From a virus (Duplodnaviria > Heunggongvirae > Uroviricota > Caudoviricetes), in IMG/VR virus record IMGVR_UViG_2534681834_000006: a stretch of 64,000 nucleotides of DNA. One strand, given 5' to 3'. The position numbers and the translations under genes are program-made. Numbering within the stretch: position 1 is the first letter of the stretch; every line of letters starts with the position of its first letter. The notes below the pieces were generated by a model. The model searched no databases. It was not told where the DNA came from and was given only the letters and a program-made list of their open reading frames with translations. Below are positions 23,735 to 24,609 of this stretch, piece by piece.

Positions 23735-23768
23735 TACAAGGAGGGCACAAAAAAGCCCCGTTCAGGGG
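23735..23768 (-). terminator. rho-independent terminator after the two-gene cassette
   Basis: GCCCCTGAACGGGGC hairpin followed by TTTTTTGTG on minus strand. Confidence 0.65.
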
Positions 23769-23776
23769 CATCAGTG

Positions 23777-24037
23777 TTATTTGCTAAGAGCAGCGAATAA
23801 TCGTTCGAAATCGATAGTATCTATAGCACGCGTAAGCGCCGGAAGTTCAGCCTCAAAGTACCCATGTCGATCGTAAAAGATGGGACCGAAGAGCGAGGCA
23901 TGTTGGATTCTACTTCGCCCCAGCCCGGACACACAGTTAAGCCCATTACCGGCTAAAAGGCTAAAAAACTTCTCTGGATTATCGTGGTAAAGCTGGGAAT
24001 CAATGGTGGCGGTTAACTCTTCCATAGGGAAGCACAC
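23777..24037 (-). CDS. small hypothetical protein, partner of T5orf172-like gene
   Basis: 86-aa ORF (start possibly at internal Met), 21 bp downstream of 24059-24586 gene, followed by terminator. Confidence 0.45.
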   Translation of the reverse strand: MCFPMEELTATIDSQLYHDNPEKFFSLLAGNGLNCVSGLGRSRIQHASLFGPIFYDRHGYFEAELPALTRAIDTIDFERLFAALSK

Positions 24038-24058
24038 CCGCCCTGTATCCCAGGGATA

Positions 24059-24586
24059 TTAAGTCCGAAGCATAAACATTGCTTTCAGCAATTCACACTG
24101 AGCGCGGATCGCGTCCGGTTCATAGCCAGATATGGAGACATAAGCCACGTCCCTCATTCCTGCGTCATCTTTGAAAGTCACGATAGAAGTAACATCCAGC
24201 TCTTTTTCGAAAGAGCAAGCAGCATCTACTGGACGCTGAAGTAAATCATTCGACTTAATGCGCTCGAGAATCCCTCCCCACATATCATTTAGATATTCGA
24301 TATGAGCCAAAACCTTATCAAGACACTCTCGTGTAAACCATTCAGTATGCCCGCCACCTGCGCTTTTCTCCCACGGCGCATTCCAGGGGAAAAAGGTTGC
24401 GTGTAAAGCCCGCTCAAGATTAACCATTGCCAAACGCGTACCACGATAGACCCGTGAAAGCGCAAAATCGGGACTCACTTGTAGCCCTTTAAACCGTGCC
24501 AATGGACCACATGAAATGCCGATTTTAAAAGTATCTCCGTTCTCCGGCACCAGAACGTAGAGGTAGTGTTGTTTCTCTTCTTGCAT
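24059..24586 (-). CDS. T5orf172 / GIY-YIG-like domain protein
   Basis: 175 aa; N-terminal YLYVLVPENGDTFKIGIS and GGHTEWF motifs typical of the T5orf172 (GIY-YIG-related) fold. Confidence 0.55.
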   Translation of the reverse strand: MQEEKQHYLYVLVPENGDTFKIGISCGPLARFKGLQVSPDFALSRVYRGTRLAMVNLERALHATFFPWNAPWEKSAGGGHTEWFTRECLDKVLAHIEYLNDMWGGILERIKSNDLLQRPVDAACSFEKELDVTSIVTFKDDAGMRDVAYVSISGYEPDAIRAQCELLKAMFMLRT

Positions 24587-24609
24587 ATCAATACCACTGC
24601 TTGATGAGA

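Follow-up and report, generated by a model that had tools for sequence, protein, structure and literature searches.

What kind of gene can occupy the interval between a replication initiator gene and a partition operon, and why would it be kept there? The question is raised by a locus on a 64,000-nucleotide stretch of DNA from a virus of the Caudoviricetes (IMG/VR record IMGVR_UViG_2534681834_000006), the whole of which is referred to below as the window. Two adjacent open reading frames (ORFs) lie here on the minus strand of a P1-like element, between the iterons that follow the initiator gene repA and the partition gene parA. The longer ORF (24059-24586) encodes 175 amino acids and the shorter (23777-24037), which has a GTG start, encodes 86. 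A first-pass annotation of the window had taken them for a two-gene cassette, consisting of a nuclease-like protein and a small partner, that was inserted into a P1-type replicon and was a candidate for an undescribed defence or addiction module. Both ORFs that it described are present, but the idea of a two-gene cassette dissolves, as the locus is a copy, split by a nonsense mutation, of a gene for which annotations exist in hundreds of P1-like phage-plasmids. We lean towards the reading that the intact protein is a replicon-linked, site-specific nuclease resembling homing endonucleases, and that it has been inactivated in the window.

The two ORFs share one frame. Together with the 21 nucleotides that separate them they add up to 810 nucleotides (528 + 21 + 261), and 23777-24586 on the minus strand reads as a complete 269-codon T5orf172 nuclease frame with one in-frame stop, that is, a pseudogene or truncated allele. 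Translated as a whole, this frame is colinear with the 269-residue “GIY-YIG nuclease family protein” of phage RCS47 except at codon 176, where a TAA (24059-24061, minus strand) takes the place of lysine. This change, K176*, is a single A-to-T substitution within an AAA codon (AAA to TAA, plus-strand A at 24061). In a tblastn comparison the locus is 98.9% identical to the protein P0001 over residues 1-269. The PHROG 2876 family, which has no assigned function, is a single-protein family of 269 positions that matches the intact protein from end to end (E 1e-193), and the 86-residue ORF aligns with its positions 184-269. The stop is rare among plasmids: the 61-mer centred on TAA occurs exactly in 3 of 382 plasmid records (pSvP1_F, NZ_MN510446; NZ_CP043337; NZ_CP122822) and its AAA version in 250 of 384, while Lys176 is also kept in a homologue that is 44% identical. 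Over the region, stop codon included, pSvP1_F and the window do not differ (100% identity). In a collection of 15 billion proteins the exact 175-residue product is found on 264 contigs, so the truncated allele has spread with some lineage; the exact 86-residue sequence has no match in that collection, and a direct reading of the sequence finds no credible ribosome-binding site for its GTG start.

The 175- and 86-residue ORFs are therefore one gene cut by a rare nonsense mutation, and in about 99% of copies it is a single gene. The supposed small partner is the C-terminal, predicted winged-helix part of the same protein. A toxin–antitoxin reading, in which the 175-residue nuclease would be the toxin and the 86-residue protein its antidote, draws on the look of two adjacent ORFs in the window and on that look only. 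A single frame, a second ORF that lacks a credible ribosome-binding site and whose exact sequence was not found elsewhere, and no two separately encoded, co-conserved proteins all speak against an addiction module; the single-gene result excludes it, and we give it next to no credence.

What the intact protein might do has to be read from its two domains. The earlier assignment of the 175-residue ORF to T5orf172, a domain related to GIY-YIG, was confirmed: Pfam PF10544 matches residues 8-85 at E 2e-6 and 28.7 bits, above the cut-off of 20, with weaker Pfam matches to MUG113 and URI-fold, which are related families, and there is a further match to phrog_681, described as “endonuclease”, at E 5.5e-9. 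A model obtained with AlphaFold2 from a five-sequence alignment (mean predicted local distance difference test, pLDDT, 71.8) has the alpha/beta fold of the GIY-YIG superfamily. In BFVD it matches phage proteins of the T5orf172 kind, which include a Hef-like homing endonuclease, proteins with CapR homology, and ORF88 (Odn) of phage ICP1. Y8, Y10, K21, G23, R31 and E82 (the last within TEWF) are invariant over four lineages that are 25-44% identical, and the spacing of the motif residues suggests that they include equivalents of R27 and E75 of I-TevI and of E180 of Odn. Judged by its sequence, the N-terminal domain is a T5orf172 nuclease domain of the GIY-YIG superfamily.

The C-terminal part is predicted, from models of moderate confidence, to be a winged-helix DNA-binding domain, which would give the protein a nuclease domain and a separate DNA-binding domain. 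It diverges much faster than the nuclease domain, with about 32% identity to the most similar of the divergent homologues described below (L004) as against about 62%. No similarity to Pfam families or PDB sequences was detected for it, no Pfam family matches the 86-residue ORF, and comparison with the RepA proteins tested gave no sequence kinship (BLASTP E 3.1; hhalign probability 0.2%). At the level of fold, generic winged-helix proteins score level with Rep domains. The stop at codon 176 comes after a long helix (157-173). The 175-residue ORF accordingly comprises the nuclease domain (about residues 5-105) and a linker, and extends into the C-terminal domain as far as its initial strands and long helix; the helix-turn-helix and wing core of the predicted winged helix is left in the 86-residue ORF (residues 184-269). 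K176* thus parts the nuclease domain from the C-terminal domain in the window copy and, because the protein is truncated before its predicted DNA-binding core, the locus most likely no longer provides a targeted nuclease there.

The gene did not reach its position by insertion into a P1 replicon, as had been proposed. In a blastn comparison with P1 the window is 99% identical up to 23710, at the par promoter and operator, has no similarity over 23711-25959, and is 95% identical from 25960, a point inside P1 oriR beyond the incC iterons. The alignment shows replacement of a whole block: 2249 bp of the window stand in place of 1491 bp in P1 (61316-62806, the IncY replicon). This exchanged replicon module (23711-25959) contains origin iterons, repA, downstream iterons, the nuclease gene and its terminator, and the nuclease gene is a passenger of the swap. 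Canonical P1 indeed has no gene between repA and parA at this site, as the first-pass annotation expected. Its placing of the gene between iterons and par is right in that iterons lie upstream and parA downstream, but the iterons are of p0111 type and are not P1 incA. Relative to P1 the swapped stretch has one limit directly after the last origin iteron and the other about 35 bp past the nuclease terminator, which is 66 bp past the nuclease stop. Window and P1 have the par promoter and, within oriR, the DnaA-box/GATC part in common, while the replicon itself is p0111 in the window and IncY in P1. We considered whether the 170-bp spacer between Ppar and incA in P1 could be a remnant of the nuclease gene and found chance short matches only. 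In many plasmids whose repA is of P1 type, similarity to P1 sets in at incA iteron 1 and not before (P1 61304-61487 region, query position 181-184), which indicates that the Ppar–incA spacer is a general rep/par recombination junction even where there is no nuclease gene.

The flanks of the block are not differentiated by replicon type. Nucleotide differences in parA are 10.8 and 8.6 within types and 10.1 between types (p0111 versus IncY), and two identical parA alleles and four identical parB alleles are common to p0111 and IncY elements, so block exchange is recurrent. The nuclease gene is a fixed passenger of a replicon block that is exchanged among P1-like phage-plasmids via recombination in the conserved flanks.

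A similar arrangement is found in more distant relatives. Word-indexed protein searches returned an E. coli/Salmonella cluster, with many truncated forms, and one 44%-identical protein only. An exhaustive hidden Markov model search of 1.84 billion representatives returned only three divergent full-length relatives, and about 150 other proteins that match by the N-terminal T5orf172 domain only. The three relatives (L004, L007 and L008) were found only in Logan assemblies, PLSDB and INPHARED containing the E. coli/Salmonella lineage only. Each sits between a Rep3-type repA and parA–parB, on a contig that is P1-like in also carrying homologues of gp23, upfB/C, rdgC and dmt. All four nuclease lineages, 25-44% identical to each other, have the order repA, nuclease gene, parA in P1-like elements.

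Two of these relatives provide a second natural block swap. L004 (Logan ERR2144811) and L007 (SRR6505940) are P1-like elements of about 90-96 kb with a sister backbone, in which gp23 is 80% identical to that of P1; their backbones have 94-99% DNA identity, and they differ in RepA type and nuclease lineage. At the protein level gp23 is 99%, ParA 100% and ParB 98% identical between them, as against 40% for RepA and 29% for the nuclease. L004 resembles the window (83% in RepA, 44% in the nuclease), and the RepA of L007 is 83% identical to that of P1, which has no nuclease gene. Past the two nuclease stops the non-homologous block runs on for 84 and 63 bp, so that in two independent backbones its boundary falls 63-84 bp beyond the stop of the nuclease gene.

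Among sequenced plasmids the gene is common. PLSDB has it in 401 records and window-type repA in 399, and 12 phage records carry both together (SJ46, RCS47, phi456, JL22 and others). P1-type parA is present in 545 plasmid records, about 74% of which carry the p0111 block with the nuclease gene. The locus is thus neither undescribed nor private to the window, being found in some 400 plasmid records and 12 phage records, in each case alongside a p0111-type repA, and having already appeared in two papers: Venturini et al. noted for pSvP1 “2 orfs inserted between repA and parA” and assigned no function (PMC6906374), and in JL22 an “unknown gene gp57” replaces the IncY repA together with repA' (PMC9603915). 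RCS47 gp090, JL22 gp57 and the pSvP1 ORFs, the PHROG 2876 or RefSeq “GIY-YIG nuclease family protein”, are the same gene (97-100% identical). There is no structural difference from the PHROG 2876 members, the split in the window being an allele and not another architecture. The first-pass annotation had allowed that its proposal would fail if the same genes lay here in P1-family genomes with a known function; they do lie at this position, but a known function does not come with them.

Presence of the gene varies with the replicon. None of 68 IMG/VR loci with P1-type RepA has a nuclease homologue, and in the 60 of these in which parA was found the gap between repA and parA is 350-562 bp. L007, also with P1-type RepA, carries the gene, which makes this a presence/absence polymorphism at one locus. 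Among p0111-type replicons no empty site was found, the gene being essentially always present with p0111-type repA. Two candidates for an empty site were rejected. L006 has a repA that is 76% identical in DNA and no nuclease gene, but the region downstream of its repA is unlike the window and not syntenic, the only annotated neighbour there being a tail gene. L105 was considered as L007 minus the gene, but is only 77-85% identical to L007, and so represents presence and absence and not a recent insertion or deletion. Some P1-like elements thus have the gene and others lack it; its site does not vary, and in every case it lies at the edge of the swapped block.

We then compared the gene with its neighbours for signs of decay among copies from the E. 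coli group. Premature stops are found in 8 of 46 copies of the nuclease gene, 1 of 47 copies of repA and none of 43 copies of parA (Fisher p = 7e-4 for the nuclease against repA and parA combined, a value that is indicative only, as the copies are non-independent). Four codons account for the eight stops: five copies have theirs at codon 112, and the others are at 68, 176 and 228, SJ46 being the copy with a stop at 228. The remaining 38 copies are intact. The ratio of nonsynonymous to synonymous polymorphism (pN/pS) is 0.30 for the nuclease gene (0.32 if only intact alleles are counted), as against 0.02 in repA and 0.00 in parA, and amino acid variation affects 37 of 270, 5 of 295 and 1 of 399 codons respectively. 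Many of the amino acid changes in the nuclease are singletons at conserved positions, and the protein collection contains additional truncation lengths. A further disrupted copy beyond the eight with stops, by an independent route of inactivation, is found in L050 (IMGVR_UViG_2645727563_000002), where a 1.8-kb insertion (4295-6060) replaces the part of the gene equivalent to 24061-24292 of the window. The nuclease gene is dispensable and weakly constrained, but it is not neutral.

The surroundings of the gene in the window complete the description. Directly after the nuclease stop an intrinsic terminator (23745-23769, minus strand; GCCCC-TGAAC-GGGGC followed by a T run, GC-rich hairpin at 23769-23755) closes the gene, so the terminator that the first-pass annotation ascribed to the unit is there. 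On the other side, between repA and the nuclease gene, lie six iterons with the core TCGCGTATAGTCAAC (24621-24877), of which four point one way and two the opposite way; the one closest to the gene starts 35 bp upstream of the nuclease ATG. We found no convincing sigma-70 promoter between these iterons and the ATG, and expression of the nuclease gene may depend on read-through from repA. The origin has five iterons on the plus strand (25844-25943), spaced by 21-22 bp, mostly 21. An extra iteron copy lies inside the repA coding sequence at 25146-25160 (TCGCTTATAGTCAAC, one mismatch to the core), apart from both intergenic arrays. An “orphan iteron” at the block boundary (23712-23731), suggested by an inverted-repeat match, was discarded because over 15 positions it departs from the core at more than 4, no better than background sites elsewhere in the window. 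repA itself (24879-25763, minus strand) encodes a p0111-type Rep3-family initiator of 294 amino acids with Pfam Rep3_N and Rep3_C, which is 42% identical to P1 RepA. The program-called ORF (24879-25820) starts at a TTG and has 313 codons; RefSeq relatives use the ATG at 25763 (294 amino acids, MPEENKG...). The frame as extended to the TTG stops no more than about 25 bp short of the first origin iteron. Downstream of the block, parA and the P1-type par promoter and operator (22412-23710, minus strand; parA start at 23608) are 99% identical to P1. An Rfam match to DUF2800 RNA over the iterons (24583-24725, plus strand) is almost certainly due to chance, at 21.9 bits against a gathering threshold of 60.2 and an E value of 0.7.

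The reading that we favour takes these features together. The intact protein would be a site-specific endonuclease of the homing-endonuclease kind, which probably cuts a related phage-plasmid that lacks the gene, in or near the rep–par junction. Once cut, that element would be repaired from the genome with the nuclease, and in the process the gene would be copied along with the non-homologous replicon next to it. Co-copying of this kind would explain the strict linkage to RepA type and the position at the edge of the exchanged block, and a homing cycle would explain decay once targets run out. Barth, Dunham and Seed have set out criteria for T5orf172 homing endonucleases in ICP1 and other phages (PMC10448857), and the combination of nuclease and DNA-binding domains, boundary position, variable presence and decay agrees with these and makes a homing endonuclease the most likely identity. 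As in the phage T5orf172 homing endonucleases (PMC10448857) and the GIY-YIG Seg proteins of T4, the nuclease domain is at one end and the predicted DNA-binding domain at the other. The gene also resembles phage T5orf172 homing genes in lying beside essential genes at the edge of a segment exchanged between near-identical genomes, and in being present in some relatives and not in others, in the frequency of its stops and in relaxed selection. It differs from them in that its home is the rep–par junction of a phage-plasmid rather than a lytic-phage gene cluster, in that it is tied to replicon type and not sporadic within one, and in that homing is here inferred. The predicted winged helix likewise sets it apart from the T5orf172 homing endonucleases listed to date, with no sequence match to CapR, DUF723, DUF4397 or RepA_N.

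Several points weigh against this reading. Cleavage, target site and homing, which are all of its functional steps, are inferred. With p0111-type repA essentially always accompanied by the gene there is no close empty-site pair within one replicon type, so that independent mobility of the nuclease gene is at most putative. Ordinary homologous recombination could move the block without any nuclease. A gene of use to the plasmid could likewise keep its position over lineages of 25-44% identity and have a pN/pS far below 1. No promoter of its own was found, and expression may rely on read-through from repA.

A nuclease at this position might instead be a weapon between replicons. The winged helix would then mimic a Rep domain and guide the nuclease to the iterons or origin of rival P1-like elements, which it would destroy or convert to the benefit of the carrier; we regard this as unlikely. 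P1-like elements share one par system and are therefore mutually destabilising, and P1-type par is common to both replicon types. The gene lies 35 bp from the iteron array and co-varies with RepA type, and this neighbourhood and a fold that in the models resembles Rep-WH1 are suggestive. There is also a precedent, which is among the structural matches (ICP1 ORF88): Odn (Gp88) of ICP1, a fusion of T5orf172 and RepA_N, cleaves the origin of PLE, an element that resembles phage-inducible chromosomal islands, in an iteron-dependent manner (Barth et al. 2021, PMC8263062). The protein of the window lineage resembles Odn in joining T5orf172 to a domain that is like an initiator DNA-binding domain, here in predicted fold only, and in being associated with RepA/iteron replicons of a modular kind, which are exchanged whole. 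But Odn has its RepA_N domain at the N-terminus, 42% identical to the RepA of its target, whereas here the order is reversed and an initiator-homologous domain of this type (RepA_N) is not found. The C-terminal domain is unlike any tested RepA in sequence, and the level scores of generic winged-helix proteins take weight from the likeness in fold. Odn is encoded by the attacker of a replicon and the window gene beside a replicon, and frequent decay speaks against a strong current benefit. The more specific proposal of a plasmid-borne counterpart of Odn, a GIY-YIG nuclease with a Rep-like winged helix that cuts the replicon regions of rival P1-like elements with the same partition system, steered by direct iteron binding or by pairing with RepA, we find somewhat more doubtful still.

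Two further explanations we consider improbable, and about equally so. A former endonuclease could have been domesticated and now bind DNA as a regulator, or partner RepA, to adjust replication control or the expression of par; CapR of PLE, a repressor derived from a T5orf172 homing endonuclease (PMC10448857), is a precedent. A site between control iterons and the par promoter that is kept in four divergent lineages would suit such a role, as would a transcript probably shared with repA, given that no promoter of its own was found, the degree of constraint expressed by a pN/pS of 0.3, and the modelled resemblance to WH1, a Rep dimerisation domain that would allow pairing with RepA. Residues of catalytic type would not be expected to remain invariant across lineages in a pure binder, though, and the gene is dispensable: truncated alleles persist, the 175-residue form widely, and IncY P1 and 68 related loci do without it. 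Alternatively the gene could be plasmid cargo, a single-gene nuclease for defence against phages or plasmids. Phage-plasmids carry defence genes. T5orf172 and GIY-YIG nucleases also occur in conflict systems (PMC8263062, PMC10448857), but the 269-, 175- and 86-residue sequences match none of the PADLOC-DB 2.0 defence models at E <= 1 and there is no NCBIfam match, so the suggestion of a defence module found no support in the models. The family is limited to one intergenic site of P1-like elements and not spread over defence islands, and relaxed selection and frequent stops also tell against a defence role.

With the cassette gone, the interest of the locus lies in a nuclease family that is confined to P1-like elements and, within them, to the rep–par junction, that always travels with the replicon block, and that combines a homing-endonuclease architecture and the corresponding population signatures with an unusual home in phage-plasmids. 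If the intact protein does cut rivals, it would help to explain the swaps of replicon type among near-identical phage-plasmids that spread extended-spectrum beta-lactamase and mcr genes, as well as the commonness of the p0111 replicon. If it is a counterpart of Odn, it would drive the replacement of IncY by p0111, and nuclease-mediated competition between replicons would be a new basis for plasmid incompatibility.
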